From Candidatus Daviesbacteria bacterium (GTDB lineage Bacteria; Patescibacteriota; Microgenomatia; Daviesbacterales; UBA10151): a stretch of 64,000 bases of DNA. Positions 35,625 to 53,758 of the stretch are shown piece by piece (position 1 is the stretch's first letter; each line of letters opens with the position of its first letter). Made by a program: the position numbers and the translations under genes. The notes beneath the pieces are model-generated. The model was not told where the DNA came from and made no database searches. It saw nothing but the letters and a program-made list of their open reading frames with translations. The DNA lies in the NCBI GenBank assembly GCA_016184225.1, contig JACPDA010000005.1, forward strand, positions 3,590 through 67,589, in the 5' to 3' direction.

Positions 35625-35630
35625 CTAATT

Positions 35631-36074
35631 ATGAAGACCTTAATCATTACATTAATAGTAGCTGCTTTCTTGCAAACTACAATTTTGCCGATAGACTTAT
35701 GTCTGTTAATTCTAATTTGCCGGGCATATATAAAATCCGACAAGAGTAATCTTTATCTTGCCTTTGCTTTTGGCCTTTTAACTGCCCATTTAAACTTAAG
35801 TGCATTAGGCCTTCAGAGTTTAATCTACTTAAGTATTGTCCAAGTGACCCAAATGTTGTCAAAAATCCGGCTGGCAGGAAACCCGTTACTTATCGTGCCA
35901 ATAACTGCAGTATTTTTATCTTTAAACCAGGTTATAAATTCACTCCTCCGCCACAGTGTATGGGAATTTTCCGGAGTAATTCTTGTTTCTTTCTTGTCTT
36001 TGCCAACTCTTTACATAATTAGATTTTGGGAAGAGCGATTTATTGTTAGAAAAGAAATTAAATTAAGAATCTAG
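35631..36074 (+). CDS. mreD: Rod shape-determining protein MreD (polytopic membrane protein)
   Basis: Position between mreC and mrdA; 5 TM helices. Confidence 0.5.
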   Translation: MKTLIITLIVAAFLQTTILPIDLCLLILICRAYIKSDKSNLYLAFAFGLLTAHLNLSALGLQSLIYLSIVQVTQMLSKIRLAGNPLLIVPITAVFLSLNQVINSLLRHSVWEFSGVILVSFLSLPTLYIIRFWEERFIVRKEIKLRI

Positions 36075-36137
36075 TGACTAGAGTCAAGAGTCAAGGAAAA
36101 TAAATTCTAGACTCTAGATTCTAGCGACTAGTCCCTA
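36072..36137. repeat. Family-C palindromic element (GAGTCAA/GAGTCTA heptamers, CTAGAGTCTAG cores) filling the mreD-mrdA spacer
   Basis: TAGTGACTAGAGTCAAGAGTCAAGG...TTCTAGACTCTAGATTCTAGCGACTAGTCCC. Confidence 0.8.
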
Positions 36138-36141
36138 ACTT

Positions 36142-37989
36142 ATGGTGAAAAAAAGAAAATCCTTAGGTCCTGGTTTTTCCGAAGAGGTGGTAAAAGTAAC
36201 GGTTAAAACTGGGCATTTTAAAAGATCGGAGTTTTCTCACTGGACTGATGTCCTTTTACCAAATTTTCGGCCCGATGAGCAGCAAACAGCCGAAAAGCCT
36301 GTTTGGAGGTTAATATTTTTTTCCGCCGTCTGTTTGGTATCTTTTTTTATTATATTTTTGCGGCTTTTTCACCTGCAGATAGTCCGAGGCAGTGAAAACA
36401 GAAGTTTGGCAGACGGAAACCGTGTTCAAGTTAAGGTAGTTCATGCCCCCCGCGGGGTGATCTACGACCGAAACGGAAAGATTTTGGCAGCCAATTCACC
36501 AGCCTTTCGTTTAAATGAGCAGAAAACAAATGGAGGCAAAGTCAGATTGGTGACAAGAGAAGAGGCTCTGGAGTGGGAAGTTAAGAAAGATCCCCGGTTT
36601 TTAGATTTGGAGGTTGATAATGTCAGGAATTACCCGTTAGGCGCCGCATTTGCTCATGTTTTGGGATTTTTAGGAGAGATTTCTAAGGAGCAACTTAAAG
36701 ATGATAAATTTAAGGGGTACCGTCAAGGGGATCAAATTGGCCAAATGGGGGTGGAGGCGCAGTACCAGGGAACCTTGCGCGGAGTAGATGGTGGTGAGAT
36801 TATCGAGGTGGATTCTTTAGGCCGAAAAGTCCGGACTTTAAGATTTAAGCCCTCTATCCCGGGACAAAATGTGTATTTGTCGATTGACGCCTCCTTGCAA
36901 GAGAGGCTTTTTGCTTTAATGCAAGAGGCTCTTCAAAAATCAGGTAGCTGTTGCGGCGGCGCAGTAGCCTTGGATCCCGGCAGTGGCAAGATTTTGGCGC
37001 TTGTATCGTTTCCTTCTTTTGACCCAAATTTGTTTACCCAAAATCCTGATGACAGTATCATTAGTGAGATTTTTTCCAGCGAAACTGCCCCGATCCTAAA
37101 CCGTATAATAGGAGGTACTTATCCGCCGGGTTCCACCTTTAAGATTGTCTCGTCCCTCGCTGCCTTGGCATCCGGTAAAGTAACTGAAAACACCACCTTT
37201 CAGGATAACGGGGTATTGTTTCTGGGGCCATACAAGTTTAGTAACTGGTACTTTAACCAATACGGAAAGGTAGAAGGTTCTGTTAATTTGTTAAAGGCGT
37301 TGCAGCGCTCAAACGATATTTATTTTTATGAAATCGCCAGGCTTATTGGGGAGAAGGCGCTGGTTGAATGGTCAAAGAAATTATATTTAGGAAAAAAACT
37401 TACAATTGATTTGCCGGGTGAGGATCAAGGATTGGTGCCGGATAATGAATGGAAAGAAAAAACTTTCGGACTGCCTTGGTATCCGGGAGACACACTGCAT
37501 ATGGCAATAGGACAGGGGTTTGTTTTGACCACGCCTTTGCAGATCTTGGGAATAACCTCCTATATTGCAGCTGATGGGGTTTTATATAAACCACAACTTC
37601 TTCTTTCCGGCAAGCCAAAGGTTTTAGTTTCCAATTTGTTTCCAAAAGAGAAGATTGATTTAGTAAAGAAAGGGTTAAAATTAGTTCCAAAAGCAGGTGG
37701 GACAGCCTGGCCGTTTTTCACCTTTCCTGTTGAAACAGCCGGCAAAACAGGGACAGCGGAGTATGGCGATCCAAAAAATAGAACTCATGCTTGGTACACT
37801 TCATTTGCCCCGGCTAATGATCCCAAGATTGCTTTAACGATTTTGATAGAAGGCGGAGGAGAAGGTTCTTCCGTGGCCGCCCCAATTGCCAAAGAATTAT
37901 ACCGATATTATTTTTCTCCGGATAAAAGTAAGCTGGTACAAGATGTTTATACTGTTGCTACAGAATCAGCTAAAAGTTTGGGGGAATAG
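36142..37989 (+). CDS. mrdA: Penicillin-binding protein 2 (elongation-specific transpeptidase)
   Basis: STFK, SND, KTGTA motifs; N-terminal TM; mre cluster context. Confidence 0.85.
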   Translation: MVKKRKSLGPGFSEEVVKVTVKTGHFKRSEFSHWTDVLLPNFRPDEQQTAEKPVWRLIFFSAVCLVSFFIIFLRLFHLQIVRGSENRSLADGNRVQVKVVHAPRGVIYDRNGKILAANSPAFRLNEQKTNGGKVRLVTREEALEWEVKKDPRFLDLEVDNVRNYPLGAAFAHVLGFLGEISKEQLKDDKFKGYRQGDQIGQMGVEAQYQGTLRGVDGGEIIEVDSLGRKVRTLRFKPSIPGQNVYLSIDASLQERLFALMQEALQKSGSCCGGAVALDPGSGKILALVSFPSFDPNLFTQNPDDSIISEIFSSETAPILNRIIGGTYPPGSTFKIVSSLAALASGKVTENTTFQDNGVLFLGPYKFSNWYFNQYGKVEGSVNLLKALQRSNDIYFYEIARLIGEKALVEWSKKLYLGKKLTIDLPGEDQGLVPDNEWKEKTFGLPWYPGDTLHMAIGQGFVLTTPLQILGITSYIAADGVLYKPQLLLSGKPKVLVSNLFPKEKIDLVKKGLKLVPKAGGTAWPFFTFPVETAGKTGTAEYGDPKNRTHAWYTSFAPANDPKIALTILIEGGGEGSSVAAPIAKELYRYYFSPDKSKLVQDVYTVATESAKSLGE

Positions 37990-38064
37990 GAAAATCGCCT
38001 CTTGTTATTCTGATCCGCCAGCTGGCGGAGAAGAATCTCTCACGAATGTGAGATACTATGAGTA

Positions 38065-39147
38065 GTGAATAATATTCCGTATTTGTTGGCGCTTCATTCC
38101 ATTGATGGACTGGGGCCGATTAGGTTACGGGCCATTTTAGAATATTTTAAAGACCCGAAGCTGGCTTGGGAAGCAAATGAAAATGAGCTTCTGAAGCTGG
38201 GCATTTTTAGAAACACGGTTAATCTTTTGGTGGAAACCCGGAAAAAACTGGATCCGGAAACTTATGCCAAAAAGATTGCTGAAAGCGGTATAAAGTGGAT
38301 TACGATTTTTGATGAGGCTTACCCAAAATTATTAGCCCAAATCTATGATCCGCCGATAGTAATTTATTATAAAGGGGAGCCGGATTGGGATAAAAAAGCG
38401 ATCGGGGTGGTGGGAACCAGAAAAATAACTGGTTACGGTAAAGTTGTAACAGAGAAGTTTACAAAAGGCTTAAGTTTAGCCGGTTTAACTATTGTTTCCG
38501 GGTTGGCCCGGGGGGTAGATGCACAGGCACATTTGACAGCAGTCTCGGAGAATGGTAAGACAATTGCAGTAATGGGCGGAGGATTAAATAATATTTTTCC
38601 TCCGGAAAATAGGGGCCTGGCGGCAAAAATTGCAGATAACTTTGGAGCAGTTATTTCCGAGTTTCCGCCAAATTATCCATCACTCCCAGGGAATTTCCCG
38701 GCAAGGAACAGGATTATATCGGGACTATCTTTGGGAGTTTTGGTGATTGAAGCGGCAGAAGATTCCGGGTCGCTTATTACTGCTAGGCTTGCTTTAGAGC
38801 AGGGTCGTGAAGTTTTTGCTGTTCCCGGTCCAATTACTTCTGATTTGTCAAAAGGTCCGATTGATCTGATTCGGGAGGGGGCGAGGATCGTATTTAGTCC
38901 GGAAGAGATTTTGGAAGAGTTGGGAATTAATAGAGTCAAGAGTCTAGAGTCAAGAGTCAAGAACGAAAGGGATCTTTCGGAAGAAGAAAGACAAATCTTG
39001 GAAGTTTTAGAAAACGAGAGCAGACATATTGATGAGATTGGCAGACAGTTAAATTTTCCTTCCCCAAAAATTTCTGCTTTGCTACTGAAAATGGAGATTT
39101 CAGGACTTGTAGAGAGCATGGGTGCTGGGATATACTGCAAGAAGTAA
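38065..39147 (+). CDS. dprA: DNA processing protein DprA/Smf (GTG start); contains an in-frame family-C heptamer block at 38929-38965
   Basis: GVVGTRKITGYGK...SGLARGVDAQAH Rossmann-like DprA core; C-terminal winged-helix extension. Confidence 0.85.
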   Translation: MNNIPYLLALHSIDGLGPIRLRAILEYFKDPKLAWEANENELLKLGIFRNTVNLLVETRKKLDPETYAKKIAESGIKWITIFDEAYPKLLAQIYDPPIVIYYKGEPDWDKKAIGVVGTRKITGYGKVVTEKFTKGLSLAGLTIVSGLARGVDAQAHLTAVSENGKTIAVMGGGLNNIFPPENRGLAAKIADNFGAVISEFPPNYPSLPGNFPARNRIISGLSLGVLVIEAAEDSGSLITARLALEQGREVFAVPGPITSDLSKGPIDLIREGARIVFSPEEILEELGINRVKSLESRVKNERDLSEEERQILEVLENESRHIDEIGRQLNFPSPKISALLLKMEISGLVESMGAGIYCKK

Positions 39148-39166
39148 CTGCAACCAACAATTAATT

Positions 39167-39517
39167 ATGCCCAAACTAATCCTGTTTCTGATTGCTTTAA
39201 TTGTTGTTATCTTAACCGCTATCTTTACACTTATCTTCAATAATGCAGCACTGAAATCAACTTCTAAAAGTGAAATTGATACTGCTGTTAATCAAGCTCA
39301 ACATGTTTACCGTCAAAGGAAGAAAGTGAGTGAAGATTTCTCAACCGGCCCTTGTCTTTCAGATGCTTTAATGCCCGGGTGGGTGGCTGATATTGCCCAC
39401 AGTCCCCGCTTGCCTACCGACGACCTGCCGGAAAACCAATGCCCGGCATACCTGGAGGGAAGGGCAGAACATTTTGTAGAGCTTGATACAGAGGGGAATT
39501 TAATCAGAGCAAGATAG
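39167..39517 (+). CDS. Hypothetical membrane-anchored protein
   Basis: ORF with one N-terminal TM. Confidence 0.3.
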   Translation: MPKLILFLIALIVVILTAIFTLIFNNAALKSTSKSEIDTAVNQAQHVYRQRKKVSEDFSTGPCLSDALMPGWVADIAHSPRLPTDDLPENQCPAYLEGRAEHFVELDTEGNLIRAR

Positions 39518-39585
39518 AGTCAAGAGTCTAGAATCTAGAGTCTAGGAAAAAATTACTTGACTCTAGACTCTAGCGACTAGTCACT
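39515..39585. repeat. Family-C palindromic element filling the spacer before the Clp ATPase gene
   Basis: TAGAGTCAAGAGTCTAGAATCTAGAGTCTAGG...TTGACTCTAGACTCTAGCGACTAGTCACT. Confidence 0.8.
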
Positions 39586-42099
39586 ATGAAATACCTAACA
39601 CTGCCAATTAGTTTATTAAAATTTTGGTATCCGGACTCGTTTGCCTTTTTTATCCGGACCTGGAAAAATTTAATGCTCTTTTTAGAAGAGGATTTGGCAG
39701 TGGGACTCATGTGGAAGCTGCTTTTTACTCCGCTTTTTCATGACTGCTCGTTTGTGGGTAGAGTTTTGAGCCTGATATTTCGTTTAAGCAGGATTCTGCT
39801 GGGGCTTTTTGCTTTTGGGATCGTTACTGGAGTCCTGCTTTTGATAGGGGGTTATTGGTTAATACTGCCGGTACTGGCATTTACAGATACCCCTCACATT
39901 TTAAGCCGAGTATTGTTTTTTAGTGGCTTAGGCTTATTTTTCCTGGATATAGTCTTCAGTCCCCATAAGAAAATCTGGCAAATTGGTAAAAGTGCTGAAG
40001 ATCTTTGGAGGGCCTCATTAGTTAAACCGGAGAACTTAAACTTTAAAAAACTTTTGGAAAGCCGGGAAGTAGCAGATCTTTTATCTAATCTGGAAATTCA
40101 ACTAAATGGTTTTCCGGATTTTGAAATTGCCGATCCGGAGGAGGTGGCAAAGAAGGCTCTGGAGTTGGGTAAGCTTTACGGCAGTGAATATTTGCGTCCG
40201 ACCCATTTTTTTGTGGCTGCCCTTTCTGAGTTTCCCCACATTGATACCTATTTAACCAAGCTGGAACTTACACCGGATGATTTTAAACAGGCTTTAATGT
40301 ATCTGGAAAAGAAAAAAAATACCTGGAGAAGGGTATACATCTGGGACGGCGATTTTACGATCCGTCACTTAAAAGGAACTAATCGGGGATGGTTGGGAGT
40401 GCCGACACCAAATTTGGATCTAGTCAGCGTTGATTTAACAAAGGAAGCTAGCTCGAAAGGTTTTCCTGATTTAGTTCGCGAGCAGGACGTTTTGAAAGAA
40501 ATTGTCAACATTTTGTCCCAAACTAGCAGTAAAAATGTGATTTTGGTGGGACCACCTGGCTCCGGTAAAACAGCCACCTTGCGATATTTGGCAAAACTAA
40601 TACTGATTGGAGATGCGCCGGATGCTCTGGCTACCAAAAGAATTATCCTTTTGGATTTAACGAAGCTTTTATCAGGGATCAAAACTCAAGGGGAACTAGC
40701 TGAGCGGATTAAGGTAGTTTTTGAAGAAATAGGCTTTGCCCAAAATGTCATTATCGCCATAGAAGAGATTCATGAGCTGGGGATGGGTGAGGCAGGAGGC
40801 AGTTTAAATCTATATTCACTAATGCAGCCATACCTTGAATCTGATACTTTTCAATTTATCGGGACTACGGAAACGGAAAATTACAGTAGAATTTTAGAAA
40901 AAAATGGCAGTTTCAGCAGGCTTTTTATCAAGGTGGAGATCCTGCCGGCCACTGTAAATGATACTCTTAAAATCTTAGAAGACAGGGCGATTGAGGCAGA
41001 AAGAAAGAACAAAGTTAAAGTTACCTTTATAGCTTTAAAGACTGCAGTGGCACTTTCCCAGAAATTGATTCATGATCGTGTTTTACCGGATTCCGCCATC
41101 AGTGTTTTAAAAGAGGCTTTAACGCAACCCGTCAACAGATGGGTGACGAAGGAGGTCGTCAGAAGAGTTATTTCCCAAAGGGTTAAAGTTCCTTTAATGG
41201 AGGTAGGGACTGTTGATAAAAATAAGTTACTTAATTTGGAAGATGAAATACACCAGCGGTTAATCGACCAAGAGCAGGCGGTTAAAGCTGTAGCTGATAC
41301 CCTGCGGCGTTCTGTAACCGGCCTTCGTGAAGAGAGAAGACCGATCGGGTCATTTTTGTTTGTTGGCCCGACCGGAGTTGGTAAAACAGAGCTGGCTAAA
41401 ACTTTATCGGAAGTGTACTTCAAAGGAGCGGGTGCCTTCATCAGATTTGATATGTCTGAATATCAAAACAGTGAGTCAGTGAGTCGGTTGATTGGTGGGT
41501 CAGGGGAGGAAGGACAGTTAACAGAGGATATCAGGCAGCGGCCGTATGCATTACTGCTTTTGGATGAGTTTGAAAAAGCAGATGCTAAAATCTTAACTTT
41601 ATTTTTACAGGTTTTAGAAGACGGCAGATTAACTGATGCCGGGGGCCGGACAGTAGATTTTACCAATGCGATTATTATTGCTACTTCAAATGCCGGCAGT
41701 TTAACCATTGCCCAAGGTTTAGAACAGGGTCGGACCCTGGCGCAGATGGATAAACAGGTTAATGACGAGCTTCTCAAAGTTTTTAAACCGGAGCTGGTTA
41801 ATAGGTTTGATGCGGTAGTACTGTTTAAGCCGCTGTCTTCGGAAGACCTGCAAAAAATTGTGGCAATCAAACTCTCCGCTTTGCAAGCCCAGATGAAAGA
41901 AAAAGGGTATTTGGTGGAATTTGATCCCGGCTTGGTGGCAGAGTTTGCTAAAAGAGGCTTTGACCCGGTGATGGGAGCCCGCCCCATGCGCCGCCTGCTG
42001 CAAGATACCCTGGAAGCCAAACTTTCCAAATTAATTCTGCAGAATGAGCTTGTAAAGGGTCAACCTTTTCAAGCTACAGTGGATTTACTTTCTGCATAG
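39586..42099 (+). CDS. Two-AAA+ Clp/Hsp100-family ATPase (ClpB/ClpC-like) with an N-terminal polytopic membrane region
   Basis: Two Walker A sites (VGPPGSGKTA; FVGPTGVGKTELAK), Walker B LLLDEFEKA; ~130 aa N-terminus with 3-4 TM helices. Confidence 0.8.
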   Translation: MKYLTLPISLLKFWYPDSFAFFIRTWKNLMLFLEEDLAVGLMWKLLFTPLFHDCSFVGRVLSLIFRLSRILLGLFAFGIVTGVLLLIGGYWLILPVLAFTDTPHILSRVLFFSGLGLFFLDIVFSPHKKIWQIGKSAEDLWRASLVKPENLNFKKLLESREVADLLSNLEIQLNGFPDFEIADPEEVAKKALELGKLYGSEYLRPTHFFVAALSEFPHIDTYLTKLELTPDDFKQALMYLEKKKNTWRRVYIWDGDFTIRHLKGTNRGWLGVPTPNLDLVSVDLTKEASSKGFPDLVREQDVLKEIVNILSQTSSKNVILVGPPGSGKTATLRYLAKLILIGDAPDALATKRIILLDLTKLLSGIKTQGELAERIKVVFEEIGFAQNVIIAIEEIHELGMGEAGGSLNLYSLMQPYLESDTFQFIGTTETENYSRILEKNGSFSRLFIKVEILPATVNDTLKILEDRAIEAERKNKVKVTFIALKTAVALSQKLIHDRVLPDSAISVLKEALTQPVNRWVTKEVVRRVISQRVKVPLMEVGTVDKNKLLNLEDEIHQRLIDQEQAVKAVADTLRRSVTGLREERRPIGSFLFVGPTGVGKTELAKTLSEVYFKGAGAFIRFDMSEYQNSESVSRLIGGSGEEGQLTEDIRQRPYALLLLDEFEKADAKILTLFLQVLEDGRLTDAGGRTVDFTNAIIIATSNAGSLTIAQGLEQGRTLAQMDKQVNDELLKVFKPELVNRFDAVVLFKPLSSEDLQKIVAIKLSALQAQMKEKGYLVEFDPGLVAEFAKRGFDPVMGARPMRRLLQDTLEAKLSKLILQNELVKGQPFQATVDLLSA

Positions 42100-42122
42100 A
42101 TCTTTCAGATACACCCCATAGT

Positions 42123-42728: not shown

Positions 42729-42923
42729 TTGATCGGGTTTTGTAATCGTTTTATAACTTCGGGAGTTGCAGGCTGAGTTGCAGGCTAAATTCCCCTTTTA
42801 TATCATTTCATGATGCGGTCGTACACTAAATTGGTTTGGTACAGACTTTAGCGTTTTGTAACGATCGTTAAGTTTTAGTAAAGTTTTCTTGGCCTGTTTT
42901 GTTAAAAATGCTATGCTAGAGTA

Positions 42924-43352
42924 GTGAAGAAAATAATTTTCCTCTTAGGAATACTGGCAGTTTTTGTACCAATAACTGTTTTTGCGGTCACAACTTCTGG
43001 AACAAGTCCAGAGATTCTTCGCTCCGCTCAGAATGACAAAGGGGGGTTAAATTCCTTATACCAAATAAACCAAAAAGTTTGTGACAGGTTTGAAACAGAC
43101 ATATTAAAGCTGGCGGCAATTATGGAAGAACTTAGAAGAAGAAAAGGAATTACGGAAACCAGGGTGGCTTTTGGGGGGACAGATACCCCGATTAAAAACG
43201 CTGATTATTGGGTGACTTACAGCGCAGAAGCGCTGGCCTTTCAACGGGCCCAAAAATATTCTTCCCAGGCCAGTTTGAGAAGCAGTTTGGAAGTTTTAAA
43301 AAATAAAATCTTAAGAGCTAAGAGTGAAGTAGGAAGGGCATTAAATGAATAA
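42924..43352 (+). CDS. Hypothetical secreted protein (signal peptide)
   Basis: ORF with an N-terminal hydrophobic segment. Confidence 0.3.
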   Translation: MKKIIFLLGILAVFVPITVFAVTTSGTSPEILRSAQNDKGGLNSLYQINQKVCDRFETDILKLAAIMEELRRRKGITETRVAFGGTDTPIKNADYWVTYSAEALAFQRAQKYSSQASLRSSLEVLKNKILRAKSEVGRALNE

Positions 43353-43688: not shown

Positions 43689-45839
43689 ATGACTAATTTA
43701 GTAATTGTGGAATCACCTACAAAAGCAAGAACACTGCAAAGATTTCTGGGTGATAAATATCAAATTGAAGCTTCCATGGGGCATGTCAGGGACCTGCCCA
43801 AGTCTGAGCTGGGAGTGGATGTGGATAAAAACTTTGAGCCCCAGTATATTATCCCCCGCGATAAGAAAAAAAGGGTAAATGAGCTAAAAAAAGTGGCAAA
43901 GACAGCAGATACCCTTTGGCTGGCTACAGATCCTGATCGGGAAGGTGAGGCGATCGCCTGGCATTTGTCAGAATTGCTGCGCAATTCTGAAGTGAAAAGT
44001 GCAAAGTGCAAAGTGCAAAGTGGGGAAACAGATATTAAAAGAGTAGTGTTTCATGAGATTACAGAACAAGCCATTAAGGAAGCCTTTGAGAATCCCAGAA
44101 GTATCGATCTAAAGCTGGTCGATGCCCAGCAAGCCAGAAGGGTACTGGACAGGTTGGTAGGTTATAAACTTTCTCCCTTGCTATGGGAAAAAGTTAAAAG
44201 AGGGTTGTCTGCCGGAAGAGTGCAATCCGTGGCCCTGCGGCTGATAGTGGAAAGAGAAAGGGAAGTTGTTGCTTTTAAGGCAGAGGAGTATTGGAATATT
44301 GAGGTAGAGCTGGAAGGTAACAGTGGACAGGCAACAGGCGACAGTTTCATTGCCACTTTAATAGAGCAAAACGGCAAGAAACTGGAAATCGGCAGTAAAG
44401 AGGAAGCAGATGGGCATGTTAAAAATTTGGAAAAAGCGCAGTATCAAGTTTCTAAGGTTACCCAAAGAGAGGTTCGCCGTTTCCCTTATCCGCCGTTTAC
44501 CACTTCAACTATGCAGCAGGCGGCAGCAAATAAACTTGGAATGTCTGCCAAAAAAACCATGATGCTCGCCCAAGCTTTGTATGAACACGGGTTGATTACC
44601 TACATGAGGACAGATTCTGTTAATTTATCCTCTCAGGCAATCGGAGCAGTAAGAGACTATATTGGAAATTTTATTGGCAAACCTTATTTGCCAAGTGTGG
44701 CCAGGGTTTTTAAGTCTAAATCCAAAAATGCCCAGGAAGCGCATGAGGCGATCAGGGTCACAGACGTCAGTCGTCAGTCGTCAGTCGTCAGACAAATTTC
44801 AAGTATGAATAAAGATCATGCCCGGCTTTATGAGCTGATTTGGAAAAGGTTTGTGGCTTGTCAAATGAATGAGGCGGTGATAGATCAGACCACGGTGGAT
44901 GTGAGTGCCGGCAACAATGTCATTCTGGGGACGAAAGAAGTGAGGACTCCAGAATCTTTAAGGAAGGATTCTGGACAAGCCAGAATGACATGCAACTATC
45001 TCCTTCGGGCAACCGGTAGTGTAATTAAGTTCGATGGCTGGTTAAAGCTATATGGCAAGGGTACAGGTGACAGTGAACAGGGGACAGAAGAAGATAAAGA
45101 AAAAATACTGCCGAAACTTGCAGAAAAAGAGCCGCTTAACCTGATTCAGCTTTTACCAGGCCAGCATTTTACAGAACCTCCCCCGAGATATAATGAGGCT
45201 TCTTTGATTAAAAAACTGGAGGAACTGGGGATTGGCCGGCCTTCTACTTATGCGCCGATTTTATCTACCATTCAGGAGCGGTTTTATGTGGAAAAATTGG
45301 AGAGAAAATTTATTCCAACCTCACTGGGTACAACTGTCATTGATTTTTTGATGGAGTATTTTGCGGATATTATTGACTATGCTTTTACCGCTCAAATGGA
45401 GGATGAGCTGGATGAGATAGCCAGGGGGGAAAGGCAGTGGCGCCCAACCATTAAAACGTTTTATGAACCATTTGAGAAAAAGTTGATTGAGACGGAAAAG
45501 AAAGCTAAAAAAGTGAAAATGGAAGTAGAGTTTGCTGGTAAAAAGTGTCCTGAGTGCGGGAAAGAGCTGATTGTCAGAATTGGCAAGTTTGGCAAGTTCC
45601 TGGCTTGTTCCGGTTTTCCGGAGTGCAAGCATACGGAATCTTTGGAAGAAAAAATTAATGCCAAGTGTCCGGATGACGGTGGGGATATTGTGGTCAGGCA
45701 TACCAAAAGAGGAAAAACTTTTTACGGCTGCAAAAACTGGCCGGTCTGCAAATTTGCTTCTTGGACAAAACCCAAGACAGGCAACAGTGCGCAGGCGACA
45801 GGCGACAGTAACACAGACAGCAAAAATGAGAACGCATAA
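43689..45839 (+). CDS. topA: DNA topoisomerase I with C-terminal zinc ribbons; carries at least six in-frame repeat blocks
   Basis: TOPRIM N-terminus (LVIVESPTKARTL), core domains, CPECGKEL...C and ...CKNWPVC zinc fingers. Confidence 0.9.
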   Translation: MTNLVIVESPTKARTLQRFLGDKYQIEASMGHVRDLPKSELGVDVDKNFEPQYIIPRDKKKRVNELKKVAKTADTLWLATDPDREGEAIAWHLSELLRNSEVKSAKCKVQSGETDIKRVVFHEITEQAIKEAFENPRSIDLKLVDAQQARRVLDRLVGYKLSPLLWEKVKRGLSAGRVQSVALRLIVEREREVVAFKAEEYWNIEVELEGNSGQATGDSFIATLIEQNGKKLEIGSKEEADGHVKNLEKAQYQVSKVTQREVRRFPYPPFTTSTMQQAAANKLGMSAKKTMMLAQALYEHGLITYMRTDSVNLSSQAIGAVRDYIGNFIGKPYLPSVARVFKSKSKNAQEAHEAIRVTDVSRQSSVVRQISSMNKDHARLYELIWKRFVACQMNEAVIDQTTVDVSAGNNVILGTKEVRTPESLRKDSGQARMTCNYLLRATGSVIKFDGWLKLYGKGTGDSEQGTEEDKEKILPKLAEKEPLNLIQLLPGQHFTEPPPRYNEASLIKKLEELGIGRPSTYAPILSTIQERFYVEKLERKFIPTSLGTTVIDFLMEYFADIIDYAFTAQMEDELDEIARGERQWRPTIKTFYEPFEKKLIETEKKAKKVKMEVEFAGKKCPECGKELIVRIGKFGKFLACSGFPECKHTESLEEKINAKCPDDGGDIVVRHTKRGKTFYGCKNWPVCKFASWTKPKTGNSAQATGDSNTDSKNENA

Positions 45840-46179
45840 AGATCTAACTGTTTGGCAGAAGTCCATGGATCTTGTAGAGAAAATCTATAAAATAACAAAC
45901 AATCTGCCTAGATCTGAATTATCCGGACTTATATCACAAATGCAGCGTTCTGCTGTCGCTATTCCATCAAATATTGCGGAAGGTGCCAAGCGAGAACATA
46001 GAGCAGAATATATTCAATTCCTTTCTATAGCTAACGGGTCTGCTTCAGAATTAGAAACACAACTTATCCTTACCAGTAAATTGTATCCTAACTTCAAGAT
46101 CGAGGTTAAAGATGCAATGATTGTTCTAGATGAAATATTAAAGATGCTTTATTCTTTGATGAAATCTTTAAAGAACTAA
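45826..46179 (+). CDS. Four-helix-bundle protein (Avd-like), paralog 4 of 4; overlaps the topA stop by 14 nt
   Basis: MRTHKDLTVWQKSMDLVEKIYKITNNLPRSELSGLISQMQRSAVAIPSNIAEGAKR...; the ORF-track N-terminal extension (45571-) overlaps topA and is treated as spurious. Confidence 0.65.
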   Translation: MRTHKDLTVWQKSMDLVEKIYKITNNLPRSELSGLISQMQRSAVAIPSNIAEGAKREHRAEYIQFLSIANGSASELETQLILTSKLYPNFKIEVKDAMIVLDEILKMLYSLMKSLKN

Positions 46180-46219
46180 CTGTTGCCTGTAGCCTACTGC
46201 CTGTAACCTAAAAAGATGC

Positions 46220-46248: not shown

Positions 46249-46305
46249 ATTGAGGGCCTCAAAATCCTTCGACTTCGCTCAGGACTATAGATCTCCCCCA
46301 GTTAT

Positions 46306-47967
46306 ATGAAATACATATTTGTCACAGGTGGTGTGATTAGTGGTTTAGGTAAGGGGATTGCCACCTCTTCAATTGCCCTGCTTTTGAAATCCGCAGGCTA
46401 TAAAGTTACCCCTATCAAGATGGATCCCTATTTAAATGTAGATGCCGGCACCATGAACCCGATTGAACACGGTGAAGTGTTTGTGCTGGATGACGGCACG
46501 GAAACTGATCAGGACTTAGGTCATTACGAGCGATTTTTGAATGAATCATTAAATGAAAAAAGTATAGCTACTCAAGGATCGATTTATCTTTCAGTAATTC
46601 AGCGGGAAAGAAATTTGGAATATGACGGGGAGTGCGTGGATGTTGTCACTTATGTGACAGAAGAAATCATCAAGCGGATTAAAGAAGCTGGTCGGGCCAG
46701 TAATGCTGATGTAGTGGTCATAGAAGTTGGCGGAACTACCGGCGAGTATCAAAATATCCTGTTTTTAGAAGCCAACAGGCTGATGAAATTAAAAAATCCG
46801 AGCGATGTCCTTCATGCCCACATTACTTATTTACCAATACCTGCCTCTATTGGTGAGATGAAGAGCAAGCCGGCCCAAATGTCTGTCCGGGATTTAAATG
46901 CCGTGGGAATCCAGCCTGATATCCTGTTGGCCAGAAGCGAGAAACCGCTGGACCAGCAAAGAATTAAAAAATTATCCATTTCCACCGGATTGGAACCGGC
47001 AGATATCATCTCTGCTCCTGATGTGGACAGTATTTATAAAGTGCCCCTGGGGTTTGATAATCAGAATCTAGCTCAGAGGTTACTGGATAAGTTGGGTTTG
47101 AAGAGGAAGAATGAAGACCTGCCTGCCGGCAGGCAGGTCATGAAGCAGTGGAAAGAATTTGTAGACAAAATTGATACTGCCAAAGATGTGGTCAAGATTG
47201 CCATTGTCGGCAAATACTTTTCTACCGGTGCTTTTACCCTGGCTGATTCATATATTTCTGTAATTGAAGCTGTCAAACATGCTGCCTGGGATCAAGGTTT
47301 AAAGCCGGAGATAACCTGGCTTGACAGCGGCAAAGTCTTGGATAATGTGGAAGTGCTCCGGAAATTCCAAGGTATTATTGTTCCCGGAGGGTTTGGTTCA
47401 AGGGATATTGAGGGTAAAATAGCTACTATCAAGTATGCCAGGGAAAATAAAATTCCCTATTTTGGACTCTGTTACGGCATGCAGCTTTCGGTAGTGGAAT
47501 ATGCCAGAAACGTATTGGAGCTCCCCGGAGCCCATACCACAGAGATTGACCCTGCTACTAAATATCCGGTCATTCATATTATGCCGGATCAAGAAAAGAA
47601 GATGCTAAATCGGGAATACGGGGCCACCATGAGGTTAGGGGCCTGGGATTGTAAGTTAAAAGAAGGTACGTATGTTTATAAATTGTATAAAGACTTTGCA
47701 CTTTCCACTTCACACTTTCCCCTTGTTTCTGAAAGGCACAGGCACAGGTTTGAGTTTAATAATGACTTTTTGGGCCAATTTATGAAAAAAGGGTTAACAA
47801 TTTCCGGTACTTCTCCTGACGGAAAGCTGGTAGAAATTATTGAACTGAAAGTCCATCCGTTTTTTGTGGGAACCCAGTTTCATCCTGAGTTAAAATCAAG
47901 GCCTCTGTCCCCGCATCCTTTGTTTGTGGGTTTCCTCAAAGCTGCTTCTAAGATCCATATAGCATGA
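46306..47967 (+). CDS. pyrG: CTP synthase
   Basis: MKYIFVTGGVISGLGKGI... synthetase domain plus a GATase domain (GLCYGMQ). Confidence 0.95.
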   Translation: MKYIFVTGGVISGLGKGIATSSIALLLKSAGYKVTPIKMDPYLNVDAGTMNPIEHGEVFVLDDGTETDQDLGHYERFLNESLNEKSIATQGSIYLSVIQRERNLEYDGECVDVVTYVTEEIIKRIKEAGRASNADVVVIEVGGTTGEYQNILFLEANRLMKLKNPSDVLHAHITYLPIPASIGEMKSKPAQMSVRDLNAVGIQPDILLARSEKPLDQQRIKKLSISTGLEPADIISAPDVDSIYKVPLGFDNQNLAQRLLDKLGLKRKNEDLPAGRQVMKQWKEFVDKIDTAKDVVKIAIVGKYFSTGAFTLADSYISVIEAVKHAAWDQGLKPEITWLDSGKVLDNVEVLRKFQGIIVPGGFGSRDIEGKIATIKYARENKIPYFGLCYGMQLSVVEYARNVLELPGAHTTEIDPATKYPVIHIMPDQEKKMLNREYGATMRLGAWDCKLKEGTYVYKLYKDFALSTSHFPLVSERHRHRFEFNNDFLGQFMKKGLTISGTSPDGKLVEIIELKVHPFFVGTQFHPELKSRPLSPHPLFVGFLKAASKIHIA

Positions 47968-48608: not shown

Positions 48609-48638
48609 TATTTCTGTCATAGAATACTTAATCTATCT

Positions 48639-49190: not shown

Positions 49191-49260
49191 CAGTAATTTC
49201 CCACTTGAAAAAAGTGACAGATTGAATACAATTGTTTAATTCAGTCTCTAAAAATATAGA

Positions 49261-49308
49261 TTGCTACGCTAATCCCGATTGAATCGGGACTAATCGCTCG
49301 CAATGACG
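49261..49308. promoter_or_regulatory. Second copy of the 48 nt palindromic motif (TTGCTACGCTAATCCCGATTGAATCGGGACTAATCGCTCGCAATGACGA), directly upstream of dcd
   Basis: 47/48 identical to 29509-29556. Confidence 0.5.
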
Positions 49309-49320
49309 AAAGAAAAAACT

Positions 49321-50001: not shown

Positions 50002-50068
50002 TCTGAAACATTAAGTAGTTCTCTGGTCTCACTATTTGAACATTTTGTGAATTAGATCTGCACACAAA

Positions 50069-50656
50069 ATGTTCCGAATGCAAAATATGAGTGTACTAGG
50101 ACTAGATGAAATACATAAAAGAATAAAGAAACATTCCCTAATCAAGAATTTAGGCCATAGGGATTTGAAAAACCCGGAAGGGGTAGGGATAGATTTGCGG
50201 TTAGGTTCTGTTCATAAAATCGTTAAAGGCGGGGCTTTTATTGAAGGCGACAGGCAACAGGCACTAGGCAGTAGAAAGGGAGTTAAGACAAAAGAGGTTG
50301 CTAAATTTCAGCAGGAAAAAGAAGAGCAAGAATGGATTGTAATAAAGCCCGGAGAATATTATTTAGCTCAGACTGTAGAAATAATCAATACCCCTTTGGA
50401 TTTAATGCCGGAAGTTTTCACCAGGACTTCACTTTTTAGAGCCGGACTATTGCTCTTGAATTCAAAAACAGATCCCGGTTACAATGGACAGCTGACAATG
50501 GGGTTAACTAATTTAAGTCCTTTTCCGGTTAAACTGCAGCTGGGGGCCAGGATTTGTAATATAATTTTTCATAAAATAAAGGGCAAAACAGTTTCTTACC
50601 AGGGACAGCATCAGGGTGGTAGGGTAAGTCCGAAGAAAGCAGAGAGACAAGTATGA
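50069..50656 (+). CDS. Second dCTP deaminase/dUTPase-superfamily paralog
   Basis: ...FTRTSLFRAGLLL...DPGYNGQLTMGL... dcd/dut pattern; contains a heptamer block GGCGACA GGCAACA GGCACTA GGCAGTA. Confidence 0.55.
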   Translation: MFRMQNMSVLGLDEIHKRIKKHSLIKNLGHRDLKNPEGVGIDLRLGSVHKIVKGGAFIEGDRQQALGSRKGVKTKEVAKFQQEKEEQEWIVIKPGEYYLAQTVEIINTPLDLMPEVFTRTSLFRAGLLLLNSKTDPGYNGQLTMGLTNLSPFPVKLQLGARICNIIFHKIKGKTVSYQGQHQGGRVSPKKAERQV

Positions 50657-51618
50657 GCAGACCGAAGCATCAAGAATATCAATATCTGGATTTACTAAAA
50701 GACATTCTAAAAAATGGCGTTAAAAAAATTGATCGGGGTACTGATGTAGCTTTGTATAGTGTTTTTGGCCGCCAGATCCGCTTTGATCTTTCGCAAGGGT
50801 TTCCGCTTTTAACCACCAAAAAAGTGTATTGGAAGGGAGTTTTGGAAGAACTTTATTGGTTTTTTTCAGGACAATCAAATATCAAATATTTGGTAGACCG
50901 TAATGTCCACATCTGGGATGATTATCCATATAAGATTTATAGTGCCAAGTGCCAAGTGCAAAGTGCAAAGTGTTTGACCAAGGAAAAATTTATAGAGAAG
51001 ATCAGGACTGATGAGCAATTTGCCAAGAAATGGGGAGAGTTACCAAGGATTTATGGTGAGATGTGGAGACGCTGGCCCACCAGAACAAAAAGAACCATTG
51101 ATCAACTGAAATGGATAGTCCAGGAATTAAAAGATGATCCTGATGCCAAAAATTTAATTGTTAATTCCTGGAATCCCGAATATTTATATACCATGGCTAC
51201 ATATGAAGATACTTCCCATTTTCCGATTTGTCACAATATGTTTCAGATTAACCAAAGAGCAGGTAAGCTTTCCTTGCAGCTTTATCATCGCAGCTGTGAT
51301 GTTTTCTTGGGTGTGCCTTTTAATATCGCAAGTTATGCATTACTGACTATGGTTTTAGCTAAAATTACGGGATATGAGCCGGGTGAATTTATTCATACTT
51401 TTGGTGATGTCCATATTTACGAAAATCATATGGCTCAAGTTAAAGAGCAGATTAAAAGAAAACCTAAGCATTTTCCCACCGTAAAAATAGATAAAGGCTT
51501 AAAAACAATTGAAGACTTTAAGCCGGAACTGGTAACTTTAGAAAATTATGATCCGCATCCGGTAATAAAAGCTGAGTTAACTGTGGCAGGTGGATATTAT
51601 GCAAAAACCAAAAGTTAG
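50653..51618 (+). CDS. thyA: Thymidylate synthase (ThyA type) with an insertion containing a heptamer tandem repeat (50941-50972)
   Basis: ...PICHNMFQINQRAGKLSLQLYHRSCDVFLGVPFNIASYALL... catalytic Cys region. Confidence 0.9.
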   Translation: MSRPKHQEYQYLDLLKDILKNGVKKIDRGTDVALYSVFGRQIRFDLSQGFPLLTTKKVYWKGVLEELYWFFSGQSNIKYLVDRNVHIWDDYPYKIYSAKCQVQSAKCLTKEKFIEKIRTDEQFAKKWGELPRIYGEMWRRWPTRTKRTIDQLKWIVQELKDDPDAKNLIVNSWNPEYLYTMATYEDTSHFPICHNMFQINQRAGKLSLQLYHRSCDVFLGVPFNIASYALLTMVLAKITGYEPGEFIHTFGDVHIYENHMAQVKEQIKRKPKHFPTVKIDKGLKTIEDFKPELVTLENYDPHPVIKAELTVAGGYYAKTKS

Positions 51619-52093
51619 TATTATTGTGGCCCTAGCCGGAAGCAAAAGAGTAATCGGCAAAAAGGGCGGCATGCCTTGGTATATTCCGGAGGAGCTAAAA
51701 AGGTTTAAAGAAATTACCATGGGTCACCCGATTATCATGGGAAGAAGGACCCATGGGTCTATCGGAAAAGTTTTGCCAGGAAGAGTAAATATTGTGATCA
51801 CTCGTGACTCCTCTTATCTGTCGGAGGGTATGAAAGTTACTCATTCGCTGGAAGAAGCTTTGCAGCTGGCAAAGGATCAACCTGGAAATGATGAGGTATT
51901 CGTGATCGGTGGAGGAGAAATCTACAAACAGGCTGTGCCTATTGCTGATAAGCTGTATCTGACAGTGATTGATATGGAAATAGAAGGAGACACATTTTTC
52001 CCGGATTATTCGGAGTTTAAAAGGATAGTCTGGCAGTCGCCGGAGCAGGAATCAGATGGGCTTAAATACAGGTTTTTGGAGTTGGAGCGATAA
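51590..52093 (+). CDS. folA: Dihydrofolate reductase
   Basis: ISIIVALAGSKRVIGKKGGMPWYIPEELKRFKEITMGHPIIMGRRT. Confidence 0.85.
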   Translation: MDIMQKPKVSIIVALAGSKRVIGKKGGMPWYIPEELKRFKEITMGHPIIMGRRTHGSIGKVLPGRVNIVITRDSSYLSEGMKVTHSLEEALQLAKDQPGNDEVFVIGGGEIYKQAVPIADKLYLTVIDMEIEGDTFFPDYSEFKRIVWQSPEQESDGLKYRFLELER

Positions 52094-52233
52094 ATAATTT
52101 ACTAATACCGATTGACAATCAATCTCTTATAAGTTAAACTGAGGCACATTACACATCTATCAGTTTACCCCGATTAGATCGGGGTTTAGGTTTTCCTGGA
52201 ACTATATTGCTGATAGAGAGGAACAAGGAAAAC

Positions 52234-53073
52234 ATGTACAAATTACCTAGTTTACAGGAATTGCTGGAAGCCGGGGTGCATTTTGGGCATCAGGTTCGGC
52301 GTGGCCACCCCCGGATGCGGCCCTATATTTATGGTGCCAGGGAGGGTGTCCATGTCATTGACTTAACCCAATCCGAGAAATACTTAAAAGAAGCCTGTGA
52401 ATTTGTTTATGAGCTGGGAAAATTCGGAAAAGTATTGCTTTTTGTGGGGACAAAAAAACAGGCAAAACCCGTTATTGAAGAGTTAGCAAAGGAATTTCAA
52501 GCGCCCTACTTGGTCCAGCGTTGGATGGGTGGGTTTTTAACTAATTTTGAGCAGATGCAGAAAAATATCAAGATCCTTAAAGAATACTTAGAACAAAAAG
52601 AAAAAGGCCAACTCTCCAAATATACTAAAAAAGAACAACTACTGCTGGATAGGAAAATGGGTAAACTGCAAAAAGATTTTGCCGGAGTGATGGATTTAGG
52701 TAAACTCCCGGATGCTTTGTTTGTGGTGGATGCTGTCTCAGACAATATTGCCATCAGGGAAGCTCGGAGGTTAAATATTAAGGTGGTAGCAATTACAGAT
52801 TCTAATTCCGATCCTACAGAAATAGATTATCCTATTCCCGGTAATGACGATGCGATAAAATCAATTAAAGTATTGGTAGGGGCGATAGCTTCGGCTTATG
52901 GTGAGGGTAAAAAAGAAGCAGGAAAAGTAGCTGAGAAGCTTTTGAAAAGCCAAGAAAAAGAGGCAGCTAAAAAGGAAGATGTGCTGCCGGAGGAATTAAA
53001 GGAAGAAGTGGCAGTAGCAGAAGAGATGGTGGAGAAAAAGGCGGTTAAAGAGTCAGAGAGGATAGTAGAGTAA
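52234..53073 (+). CDS. rpsB: 30S ribosomal protein S2 (ATG at 52234 with an AAGGAAA SD; C-terminal charged extension)
   Basis: LLEAGVHFGHQVRRGHPRMRPYIYG... Confidence 0.9.
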   Translation: MYKLPSLQELLEAGVHFGHQVRRGHPRMRPYIYGAREGVHVIDLTQSEKYLKEACEFVYELGKFGKVLLFVGTKKQAKPVIEELAKEFQAPYLVQRWMGGFLTNFEQMQKNIKILKEYLEQKEKGQLSKYTKKEQLLLDRKMGKLQKDFAGVMDLGKLPDALFVVDAVSDNIAIREARRLNIKVVAITDSNSDPTEIDYPIPGNDDAIKSIKVLVGAIASAYGEGKKEAGKVAEKLLKSQEKEAAKKEDVLPEELKEEVAVAEEMVEKKAVKESERIVE

Positions 53074-53239
53074 AGAGAGTCCGGCTCGTCTGGATCGCAA
53101 AGTACCGCTCGTGCGACCACGTCACTCGCTATTTGTTTGTTTCGCGCCGAGTGATGGCTGGGTCATGAAGTGATTAGTGTGCTCAACGGCACCGATTACT
53201 TTGTTGTCTTAAGACTTCGCCGTCCTACAAGGAGGATTT

Positions 53240-53689
53240 ATGAAGATTAATGATATAAAAAAATTAAGAGAAGAGACAGGGGCGGGGATTGCCGACTGTA
53301 AGGAGGCTCTGAGCTTGTCGAAGGGCGATATAGAGAAAGCCAAGGAGTGGTTAAAGCAGAAGGGTTTGGATAAAGCTTCTTCCAAACTTGCAAGGGAAGT
53401 TAAAGCCGGGATAGTGGAAGTTTATTCCCATGGTGGGAAAGTGGGGGTTTTGGTAGAAGTCCTCTGTGAGACTGATTTTGTGGCCAGAACCGAGGATTTC
53501 AAAAATTTAGCCCACGAACTTGCTTTGCAGATTGCTTCCATGAACCCGGCAAGCGTTGAAGAATTACTGGCGGAGGAGTATATTAGGGATAATTCTTTGA
53601 CTGTGGAGCAGTTGATTAAATCAGTGATAGGAAAGTTGGGAGAAAATATACAAGTTGGAAGGTTTGAGAGGATAGCTTTGGGAGAATAG
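53240..53689 (+). CDS. tsf: Elongation factor Ts, short form (149 aa)
   Basis: LREETGAGIADCKEAL...; GGAGG SD. Confidence 0.8.
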   Translation: MKINDIKKLREETGAGIADCKEALSLSKGDIEKAKEWLKQKGLDKASSKLAREVKAGIVEVYSHGGKVGVLVEVLCETDFVARTEDFKNLAHELALQIASMNPASVEELLAEEYIRDNSLTVEQLIKSVIGKLGENIQVGRFERIALGE

Positions 53690-53758
53690 AGTCTAGAGTC
53701 AAGAATCTAGAGTCTAGGAAAACAAAGTCTAGACTCTCGACTCTAGCAACTAGTCACT
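53687..53758. repeat. Family-C palindromic element filling the tsf-frr spacer (begins at the tsf TAG)
   Basis: TAGAGTCTAGAGTCAAGAATCTAGAGTCTAGG...GTCTAGACTCTCGACTCTAGCAACTAGTCACTAT. Confidence 0.8.

Follow-up and report, generated by a model that had tools for sequence, protein, structure and literature searches.

Heptamer hairpins between stop and start codons of a Candidatus Daviesbacteria genome: probable gene-less derivatives of a stem-loop cassette with a TIGR02436/S23p gene

How do hairpins built of seven-nucleotide repeats come to fill the spacers between the stop codon of one gene and the start codon of the next in a very compact bacterial genome? The question is raised by a 64,000-nucleotide stretch of DNA from a Candidatus Daviesbacteria bacterium of the candidate phyla radiation (CPR; assembly GCA_016184225.1, contig JACPDA010000005.1, positions 3,590 to 67,589 of the forward strand), hereafter the window, in whose own numbering coordinates are given. 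A sequence-only reading had noticed palindromic repeats, termed family C, in three of its spacers, and had proposed a possible new class of intergenic element, either inserted site-specifically at TAG or selected as a structured spacer. Comparison with related loci (cited by handles such as L001) and with other repeats of the window points to another origin: family-C copies are probably gene-less, 'solo stem' derivatives of a selfish stem-loop cassette, which resembles the intervening sequences (IVSs) of rRNA and carries a gene for a four-helix-bundle protein (TIGR02436/PF05635, 'S23p').

The window contains three full family-C copies (C1, C2 and C3; Table 1), each 70-79 nt long and spanning the distance from a TAG stop codon to the next ATG, in the same mreD-mrdA, ORF-clpB-like and tsf-frr spacers in which they had first been noticed. 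In all three, the stop codon of the upstream open reading frame (ORF) is the TAG of the copy itself; the tail, which had been thought to lie directly at the ATG, is separated from it by 0-7 nt (C1 ends ...GTCCCTAACTT and C3 ...CACTATTAAAC). The anatomy comprises a run of heptamers (GAGTCAA, GAGTCTA, GAATCTA), a loop of ~10 nt beginning GGAAAA, and a 3' arm of inverse heptamers (GACTCTA, GATTCTA, GCGACTA, GTCACTA). Motif counts are far above chance, with 23 matches to the core CTAGAGTCTAG in the window (<=1 mismatch; 0.73 expected) and 6 to the 3' tail GCGACTAGTCACT (<=2 mismatches; 0.43 expected), and CTAG, otherwise scarce in the window (103 versus 233 expected), recurs at 7-nt spacing within the copies. 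Two details of the first description do not hold: the core CTAGAGTCTAG falls short of a perfect palindrome (its reverse complement reads CTAGACTCTAG), and GTCTAGAC is present only in C3 rather than in each copy. The short palindrome reported between rplK and rplA does have family-C sequence, its exact form being a minus-strand half copy with the 3' arm only; the rplK stop TAG (1385-1387) lies inside this half copy, which ends ..CTAGTCACTATAAAACT and is followed by the rplA ATG at 1357. The block in dprA is in frame, as had been stated, and is translated within the linker joining the DprA domain to the winged-helix domain. Pfam supports the flanking genes (PBP2/mrdA, ClpB-like ATPase, EF-Ts, RRF, L11, L1, DprA, RseP and MreC), while 'mreD' is assigned from a weak sub-cutoff match (TIGR03426, E = 2e-4) and its synteny after MreC.

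The history of two of the spacers could be followed in 48 related loci retrieved via RRF. The closest relative, L001, has empty sites at both, reading TAAATG at tsf-frr (GGGGAGTAA followed by ATG) and TAATG at frr-rseP; by comparison, the window carries clean inserts of 76 nt (C3, at tsf-frr) and 77 nt (a hairpin of a second family, A, at frr-rseP), placed exactly between TA and ATG. The hairpins are therefore insertions, and the empty sites that the sequence-only reading had suggested looking for exist at both junctions, in L001 and in most other relatives. At tsf-frr, ~27 of the 48 show a stop/start overlap or a spacer of <=3 nt (GGAGAATAATG), the GGAGA at the tsf 3' end of such empty sites being the ribosome-binding site of frr, and 8 carry a heptamer hairpin of other sequence. 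At frr-rseP, ~25 are empty (spacer <=12 nt); family A is found in the window, L007, L011 and L017, family C in L012 and L033 (reading TAG AGTCAAG...CTCTAGCGACTAGCCACT, then ATG), and other heptamer hairpins in 10 further loci, most with folding z-scores of -3 to -5. These states are patchy on the Frr tree, a single short gene with weak resolution. At the simplest junction, TA/ATG, the first base of the arm completes the stop codon (G, or A in other families, giving TAA at the same site), so that TAG is a product of the insert and not its target, and the notion of site-specific insertion at TAG is given up. The expectation that copies always abut TAG is borne out for the eight of eight window elements that have a 5' arm and follow a gene (stop usage in the window is TAA 33, TAG 22 and TGA 17); for 3'-arm-only copies the upstream gene ends at a TGA within the arm, and other copies are not intergenic. 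A TA target-site duplication was considered and dropped, as the junctions (TA[G...CACT]ATG versus TAATG) do not fit it.

The likely source of the hairpins is indicated by a Pfam scan of the window ORFs, which found four PF05635 ('23S rRNA intervening sequence protein') genes, all passing the TIGR02436 cutoff. The product of the gene at 22940-23305, the one tested, matches PDB 2GSC (E = 1e-18); the TIGR02436/S23p protein is a toroidal pentamer, distantly related to Avd of diversity-generating retroelements. The cassette of this gene, with family-A arms, reads in order upstream stop TAG, 5' arm, gene, 3' arm and the ATG of an 86-aa ORF (22664-22924), and in another cassette (45776..46210) the 5' arm (GACAGGC x4.7) is translated as the C-terminal end of topA. 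A hidden Markov model (HMM) of the four window genes retrieved 11 more in other loci, and 14 of the total of 15 are bracketed by inverted arms. The 12 scorable genes (4 in the window, 8 in other loci) all lie within a hairpin loop, their flank complementarity having a median of 12 versus 6.5 for 1741 control genes (95th percentile 9.5; Mann-Whitney p = 3.6e-9). In L093, L103 and L161, the arms bracketing the gene are those of family C. Upstream of the start codon, L093 reads ..CTAGGAAAACAAA followed by GTG, identical to the C3 loop, and the end of the 5' arm together with the loop before that start codon matches the C3 stretch CTAGGAAAACAAAG without a difference; downstream of the gene, L093 reads TGA CTCTAGACTCTAGCGACTAGTCACT.., then ATG. 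The C2 loop GGAAAAAATTACTTGA resembles the ribosome-binding region of the cassette gene and its last codons plus stop. Outside Daviesbacteria, in another patescibacterial locus (L052, 802-1158), the arrays that bracket the gene are inverted and have units of 9 nt (GTATCAAAG / TTTGATACT). Six period-9 arrays occur in this locus, and the periodicity of the arms is therefore lineage-specific and not always 7.

How a cassette may become a bare hairpin is illustrated by the thyA-folA junction, which is empty (TAATG) in most relatives. L010 has a full 130-aa gene between the arms, L016 has the gene of L010 with an in-frame 60-codon deletion, and L026 has a gene-less hairpin that shares with L010 a 29-nt 5'-arm stretch (28/29 identical) in which the start codon is retained. 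Gene-less hairpins can therefore arise from cassettes by internal deletion. They have in this respect the hallmark of a miniature inverted-repeat transposable element (MITE), namely that they derive, by loss of the interior, from a longer and putatively autonomous element whose ends they share; here the longer element encodes a four-helix bundle.

A parallel outside CPR was found on plasmids, where a tblastn search of 72,556 plasmids with the window four-helix-bundle protein returned 24 records, nearly all from cyanobacteria (including Nostoc 10, Calothrix 3 and Trichormus 2). Complementary heptamer arrays flank the gene in 11 of the 16 cyanobacterial loci fetched, and 14 of the 16 have a period-7 array in at least one flank. 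In five Nostocales loci with AGGAGTC-type arms, the arrays span the upstream stop to the downstream ATG; the Nostoc punctiforme plasmid pNPUN01 reads TAA ATCAGGAGTCAGGAGTC..AATAA, ATG ... TGA CTCCTGACTTCTGAATTCTAATT, ATG, with a unit (GGAGTCA) one base off the family-C GAGTCAA. Cyanobacterial four-helix-bundle genes also occur within tight operons, CRISPR-cas included: between cas6 and cas4 on a Pseudanabaena plasmid (L207, where the flanking arrays, TAAAAGC x8 and CAAAAGC x9, are direct, not inverted), beside cas4 in Anabaena sp. 90 (L217), and between ribonucleotide reductase genes (L208). A broader proposal, which we put forward tentatively and consider rather doubtful, is that the TIGR02436/S23p protein is the dedicated partner of transposase-less mobile stem-loops spanning CPR and cyanobacteria, with the short tandemly repeated repetitive (STRR) hairpins, the rRNA IVSs and the gene-less hairpins as its footprints, whose exact stop-to-start position would work by way of hairpin-bridged reinitiation or RNase III cutting of the operon transcripts.

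According to the derivation from a cassette that we favour for family C, the full element consists of a 5' heptamer arm, a ribosome-binding site, a gene of ~120 aa for the four-helix bundle, and an inverse-heptamer 3' arm. Cassettes and gene-less hairpins occupy the short gap that separates a stop codon from the start codon after it (TA/ATG), a placement that would reflect what selection tolerates, as such sites would be nearly the only harmless ones for insertion in compact operons. Copies would have spread without a canonical transposase. Slippage or templated correction, acting on the DNA, would preserve the 7-nt periodicity and the complementarity of the arms, and with the arms evolving in concert each lineage would therefore have its own heptamer families. 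In the polycistronic RNA, the arms may pair and bring stop and start side by side, so that coupled or Shine-Dalgarno-less initiation survives, and the stem is probably a substrate of RNase III, by analogy with the rRNA IVSs.

Several observations weigh against this derivation. The window has no gene-carrying family-C cassette; the link depends on other contigs and, here, on family A. The gene could instead have inserted into pre-existing hairpin loops, a reverse order of events against which the thyA-folA series argues. No transposase, RAYT (REP-associated tyrosine transposase, REP being repetitive extragenic palindrome) or integrase domain was found by Pfam in the 72 window ORFs, nor could a target-site duplication be defined. 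Of the 16 cyanobacterial loci, 5 have flanks without complementarity, and the mismatched-pair control for the cyanobacterial set is noisy (95th percentile 12). The Frr tree rests on one short gene. In thyA, the heptamer array replaces an existing segment of ~10 aa and is not an addition, from which it follows that at least some arrays arise in place and not by insertion. Finally, the sense and antisense strands fold equally strongly, leaving no RNA signature on the sense strand, and among 1x1 mismatches in 91 structured spacers G.U is not favoured over A.C (17 versus 27, p = 0.17). Because the RNA-level tests give no sense-strand signature, a role in the transcript is unsupported by sequence alone, and the complementarity of the arms seems to be maintained at the DNA level.

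The last two results also bear on the explanation of the hairpins as selected regulatory RNA elements, acting in translational coupling or as processing or stability signals that tune the downstream gene. For the hairpin inserts, stable folds are predicted, with dG of -24 to -33 kcal/mol and z of -4 to -7, those of the family-C copies alone lying at -24 to -29 kcal/mol (C1 -28.6, z -6.9; C2 -25.3, z -4.7), with the stop codon at the 5' foot and the start codon unpaired just beyond the 3' foot. This strong folding, the stop-to-start geometry, the lack of a Shine-Dalgarno sequence between 3' arm and ATG, and the use of the tsf GGAGA as frr ribosome-binding site where the junction is empty would all suit a regulatory role, as would the rpsU hairpins of L023 and L026, which are placed between the Shine-Dalgarno sequence and the ATG. 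Precedents are phage T4 gene 38 and the intercistronic RNase III sites of T7. For STRR hairpins, such roles have already been suggested (PMC2670836). Most relatives, however, lack a hairpin at the same junctions, copies also lie in frame in coding sequence, and neither an excess of G.U over A.C nor a stability bias towards the sense strand is found. Start codons are unpaired in every predicted fold, with no masking by the stem, and no Rfam family was found at the copies, the window matches being three tRNAs only and a permissive scan remaining far below threshold. As to the idea of a selected structured spacer, the spacers do fold, and selection at the RNA level receives no support from the two tests; we consider the regulatory explanation unlikely. 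An intrinsic terminator and a promoter were also considered and rejected: no copy has a terminator-like site (a GC-rich stem with a T run behind it), the tails reading ..CACTATG and ..CTATTATG, and the sole promoter-like match is weak and lies within a family-A 3' arm, with its -10 box overlapping the ATG.

The arrays could alternatively be purely local microsatellites, produced by slippage in place and quasi-palindrome template switching, their likeness due to convergence or gene conversion and the four-helix-bundle gene a bystander. Two reports, both citing Mrazek 2007, state that among long simple repeats heptamers show the strongest over-representation in many bacteria, which is attributed to slippage (PMC4692102, PMC4679880). 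The ThyA array, which ~13 relatives carry in a variable part of the protein (in L007 the position holds a full family-C hairpin), occupies a pre-existing segment with lineage-specific units (AAAGTCA, AAAGTGC, AAAGTTC and others), as in-place concerted evolution predicts, and strand-symmetric folding and the types of mismatch suit a DNA-level process. Against this explanation stands the dispersal of family C. Its tails recur, at sites that are not orthologous, in at least 8 loci of Daviesbacteria and in many metagenome contigs, a scan of the latter for the 3' tail giving many low-GC contigs with full copies. In a non-redundant set of 55 tails, a gene begins 0-7 nt (to 12 nt) past the tail in 19-20 cases, and 10-11 tails lie in frame within coding sequence, all in sense orientation. 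The non-repeat parts, loop GGAAAACAAAG and tail CTCTAGCGACTAGTCACT, are common to different loci and genomes, which favours copying and makes convergence unlikely. The 76-77-nt inserts are clean relative to the nearest relative, with no intermediate, and the association with the four-helix-bundle gene is strong. On balance, a purely local origin of the hairpins appears improbable. In DnaX, the loop from the first to the second zinc-ligand cysteine varies from 5 to 38 aa between almost invariant flanks, and in several genomes its extra residues are a translated family-C hairpin (..SLTLATS..). The unit of the DnaX coding arrays in L014 and L016 is the stop-free GAGTCAA, and where TAG-containing units lie inside coding sequence (dprA, L127) their TAGs are out of frame. 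A phage origin was tried and rejected: the family-C pattern matches 2 viral contigs, without family-C heptamers in ~45 nt upstream of either, blastn of C2 against phages gives a 24-nt chance match only, and nothing in phages matches the four-helix-bundle protein.

Classical MITEs that depend for their movement on a transposase supplied in trans from another locus (for example one of the IS630/Tc1 type targeting TA, or a RAYT) would account for the terminal inverted repeats TAGTGACTAG / CTAGTCACTA of the fullest copies (C1, L107, L119, L162), for the junctions at TA and for the presence/absence polymorphism, and REPs too are found inside replication and repair genes (PMC3733652). We nonetheless regard this as a remote prospect: the 72 window ORFs encode none of the corresponding enzymes, the junctions compared with empty sites fit simple TA/ATG insertion and not TA duplication, the GTAG and CGTC tags are lacking, and the longer version carries the four-helix-bundle gene, not a transposase. 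Least credible of all are DNA-level protein-binding arrays read every 7 bp at GANTC or CTAG by a regulator, nucleoid protein or methylation system, since, although GANTC is in all family-C units and CTAG recurs at 7-bp spacing, GANTC is neither avoided nor enriched elsewhere in the window (204 versus 233 expected), for which reason a methylation or restriction target was also dropped, and the units of the other families found at these sites are AT-rich and unrelated.

Heptamer hairpins come in many families, of which family C is a single example, and are a feature found across the Candidatus Daviesbacteria clade. Period-7 arrays number 21 in the window (each remaining period between 4 and 12 has <=4; ~0.3 expected by chance), and Tandem Repeats Finder reports dozens with unrelated units (GAGTCWA, CTGACRR and others). 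In 819 kb of Daviesbacteria DNA there are 110, versus <=17 for periods 5, 6 and 8-10, and none was found in the non-CPR loci examined (Omnitrophota, Planctomycetota). Family A has a design like that of family C (CTTTCAG TCATCAG .. CTGACGA CTGACAG .. CTGACGACTATT, then ATG). The earlier remark that tsf-frr carries a family-C and frr-rseP a family-A copy is confirmed, both hairpins being located there, and the 3' arm of the hairpin at 7767..7825 contains the TGA stop of the GH1 gene. Some family-A hairpins are nested or mosaic: at frr-rseP, that of L007 has an extra small hairpin (GAGCGAAGCTCGCAAGCTTAGCTT) within its 3' arm, and that of L017 has its centre replaced by CCCGATTTAATCGGG. The elements of the window are collected in Table 1.

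Table 1. Positions of family-C and family-A elements, four-helix-bundle gene cassettes and in-frame heptamer arrays in the window.
Element	Position	Strand	Location	Sequence and details
C1, family C	36066..36141 (TAG-to-ATG part 36072-36141)	+	spacer from probable mreD to mrdA	TAG TGACTA GAGTCAA GAGTCAA GGAAAATAAATT CTAGACTCTAGATTCTAGCGACTAGTCCCTAACTT, then ATG; stop TAG 36072-36074; 5' arm ~36066-36095; GGAAAA loop 36096-36105; 3' arm 36106-36136; ATG 36142
C2, family C	39515-39585	+	unknown ORF 39122-39517 to ClpB-like gene; from TAG to base preceding ATG at 39586	TAG AGTCAAGAGTCTAGAATCTAGAGTCTAG GAAAAAATTA CTTGACTCTAGACTCTAGCGACTAGTCACT, then ATG
C3, family C	53687-53765	+	spacer from tsf to frr	TAG AGTCTAGAGTCAAGAATCTAGAGTCTAG GAAAACAAAG TCTAGACTCTCGACTCTAGCAACTAGTCACTATTAAAC, then ATG
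Family-C half copy, 3' arm only	1358-1395	-	rplK-rplA, both genes on minus strand	..GTGGC TAG TCGCTAGAATCTAGTCACTATAAAACT, then ATG
In-frame GAGTCAA/GAGTCTA array, 4.4 units	38932-38962	+	dprA, ~aa 289-299	reads N R V K S L E S R V K N
Family-A hairpin	35554..35630	+	mreC to probable mreD	TAG CTATCAG TCATCAG TCTTCAG CTATCAG AC..GT CTGACGA CTGAAGG CTGACAG CTGACGACTCTAATT, then ATG; dG -31.5, z -6.3
Family-A hairpin	54318..54396	+	frr to rseP	
Family-A hairpin	21720..21802	-	between def (21800-22372) and fmt (21018-21719)	
Family-A hairpin	25391..25460	-	immediately 5' of ATG of gene 23336-25390; divergent intergenic region, no upstream stop codon	
Family-A hairpin	7767..7825	-	overlaps 3' end of GH1 gene (7792-9156)	ends ..CTGACGACTATTATC, then ATG at 7766
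Full cassette, family-A arms	22925..23338	-		TIGR02436 gene 22940-23305; 5' arm 23306-23335; 3' arm 22925-22958
Cassette	12935..13375	-	downstream of tRNA-Thr	TIGR02436 gene 12965-13321; inverted arrays ACTAAAT x4.4, TTAAGTC x3
Cassette	45776..46210	+		TIGR02436 gene 45826-46179; 3' arm GCCTGTA/GCCTACT 46184-46210
Cassette	17828..18260	-		TIGR02436 gene 17848-18237; inverted repeats GATACAATTGTA / CAATTGTATGAC; arms not heptamers
In-frame array	43989-44024	+	topA	unit AAGTGCA
In-frame array	44760-44794	+	topA	family-A unit TCGTCAG
In-frame array or hairpin	50939-50974		thyA	
In-frame array or hairpin	47693-47724		pyrG	
In-frame array or hairpin	63116-63186		dnaX	
In-frame array or hairpin	30482-30513			
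In-frame array or hairpin	23944-23980		gene 23336-25390	
In-frame array or hairpin	24127-24186		gene 23336-25390	

Several known systems resemble these elements in part. Heptamer repeats are over-represented in many bacteria, with no established cause (PMC4692102, PMC4679880), and 7-bp STRR hairpins between cyanobacterial hupS and hupL have been proposed to serve transcript stabilisation or translational coupling (PMC2670836). Like the window hairpins, STRRs have tandem 7-nt units, many families per genome and inverted arrays within operons (PMC2670836, PMC4692102). The stop-to-start layout is likewise shared on Nostoc, Calothrix, Aulosira and Trichormus plasmids (this analysis), although the host here is a CPR bacterium with a very compact genome and not a heterocystous cyanobacterium. 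The published STRR units are CCCCAGT (STRR1), TTGGTCA (STRR2) and CAACAGT (STRR3), from which the window units listed by Tandem Repeats Finder (GAGTCWA, CTGACRR and others) differ. The rRNA IVSs are selfish stem-loops that enclose an S23p ORF and are cut by RNase III; that the ORF aids mobility is an old idea (PMC4990558). The IVSs of 23S rRNA in Coxiella and Leptospira share with the present elements terminal inverted repeats (a ~28-bp stem), sporadic occurrence and ORF decay (PMC4990558), and PF05635/TIGR02436 lies in the loop of the four window cassettes and of L093, L103 and L161, the family-C copies of the window having no ORF. Unlike IVSs, the window elements lie in protein operons, 5' regions and coding sequences and not in rRNA helices (the window has no rRNA gene), most of their arms are heptamer arrays, and many copies lack the ORF. 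REPs, and the REP-doublet hairpins (REPINs) of REP/REPIN-RAYT systems, are short dispersed palindromes between co-directional genes that flank their own RAYT gene in inverted copies and can sit inside replication and repair genes (PMC3116915, PMC3733652). The window elements differ from them in lacking the GTAG/CGTC tag (5' ends are ATAG or CTAG), in length (65-80 versus 20-40 nt), in their periodic arms, and in bracketing a four-helix-bundle gene, not a Y1 transposase. The Rickettsia palindromic elements (RPEs) are likewise in-frame insertions into the housekeeping genes of an organism with a reduced genome, where surface loops tolerate them (PMC10969869); they differ in being ~100-150 bp long, in encoding a conserved peptide, and in having neither heptamer periodicity nor a habit of occupying stop-to-start junctions. 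In marine Beggiatoaceae, TAACTGA arrays lie a few bases 5' of starts that lack a Shine-Dalgarno sequence, ribosomal protein operons included, and differ in being direct repeats of one unit, almost never inverted, with no hairpin or gene reported (PMC4679880). The proposal of a new element class therefore stands only in part, since the arms are known STRR-type heptamers and the layout is that of an IVS with its S23p ORF, whereas the association with this gene across phyla appears undescribed. No publication was found that links the four-helix-bundle family to STRR or heptamer repeats, or that describes such repeats in CPR bacteria, in a literature coverage that was incomplete and is accordingly weak evidence of novelty.

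The window has further repeats. The palindrome ACGATCGT occurs 7 times (0.16 expected), just 5' of -10-like boxes, with sites of this type at 9202-9233, 9737-9768, 12176-12211, 12731-12760, 56203-56238 and 56833-56860, and at 42861, 43366, 43405, 58823 and 5865; ACGGCCGT lies at 12190 and a HIP1-like GCGATCGC at ~3083. Longer inverted repeats containing ACGATCGT bracket three paralogous PaaX_M (Cas2-like domain) genes (9230-9736, 12212-12730 and 56272-56832), and PaaX_M-like genes with similar flanks occur in L021, L027, L033, L034 and L159. A second palindromic element is unrelated; its ends read GTCATTGCGAGG...CCTCGCAATGAC, its inner hairpin reads CCCGATTGAATCGGG, and it lies at 29424-29574 and 49237-49315, and elsewhere in the frr-rseP spacers of L002 and L006, in L030 (481-768) and in L054 (4825-5115). 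In other CPR loci, ends of this type bracket a GIY-YIG-like gene (N-terminus ..YVYILTN..LYIG.T.NL..R..EH), which suggests that here, too, a full element has a miniature counterpart. Many window genes have a TATAAT-like box just 6-8 nt 5' of the start codon and no Shine-Dalgarno sequence (e.g. 2815-2838, 22335-22357, 11243-11263, 12193-12214, 33012-33034, 42905-42926), which suggests that leaderless mRNAs may be frequent; clear AGGAGG sites precede other genes (e.g. tsf, and at 60493). Ribosomal protein L1 (473-1357, minus strand) has a charged, low-complexity N-terminal extension of ~85 aa before the canonical ..SKKYQE..YPLSEAV, its Pfam domain covering aa 110-285 of 294. GC skew is strongly positive over most of the window (1-64000), with cumulative skew rising steadily and most genes on the plus strand. 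Among tetranucleotides, CCGG is ~3-fold over-represented, and ACGT, CGCG and TCGA are strongly depleted.

If the family-C hairpins have the origin that we favour, two old puzzles, the STRR heptamers (known since 1990) and the S23p gene of the IVSs (since about 1993), would be tied together: heptamer arrays would be the arms of a cassette with an S23p-family gene, many 'orphan' hairpins would be its gene-less remains, and both puzzles would become testable in a tractable organism such as Nostoc punctiforme. For the annotation of Daviesbacteria genomes, the repeat arms supply stop codons, C-terminal tails and some start sites. CPR genomes of ~1 Mb tolerate dozens of inserts, which split overlapping stop and start signals and enter essential genes (the DnaX zinc loop, ThyA and TopA).

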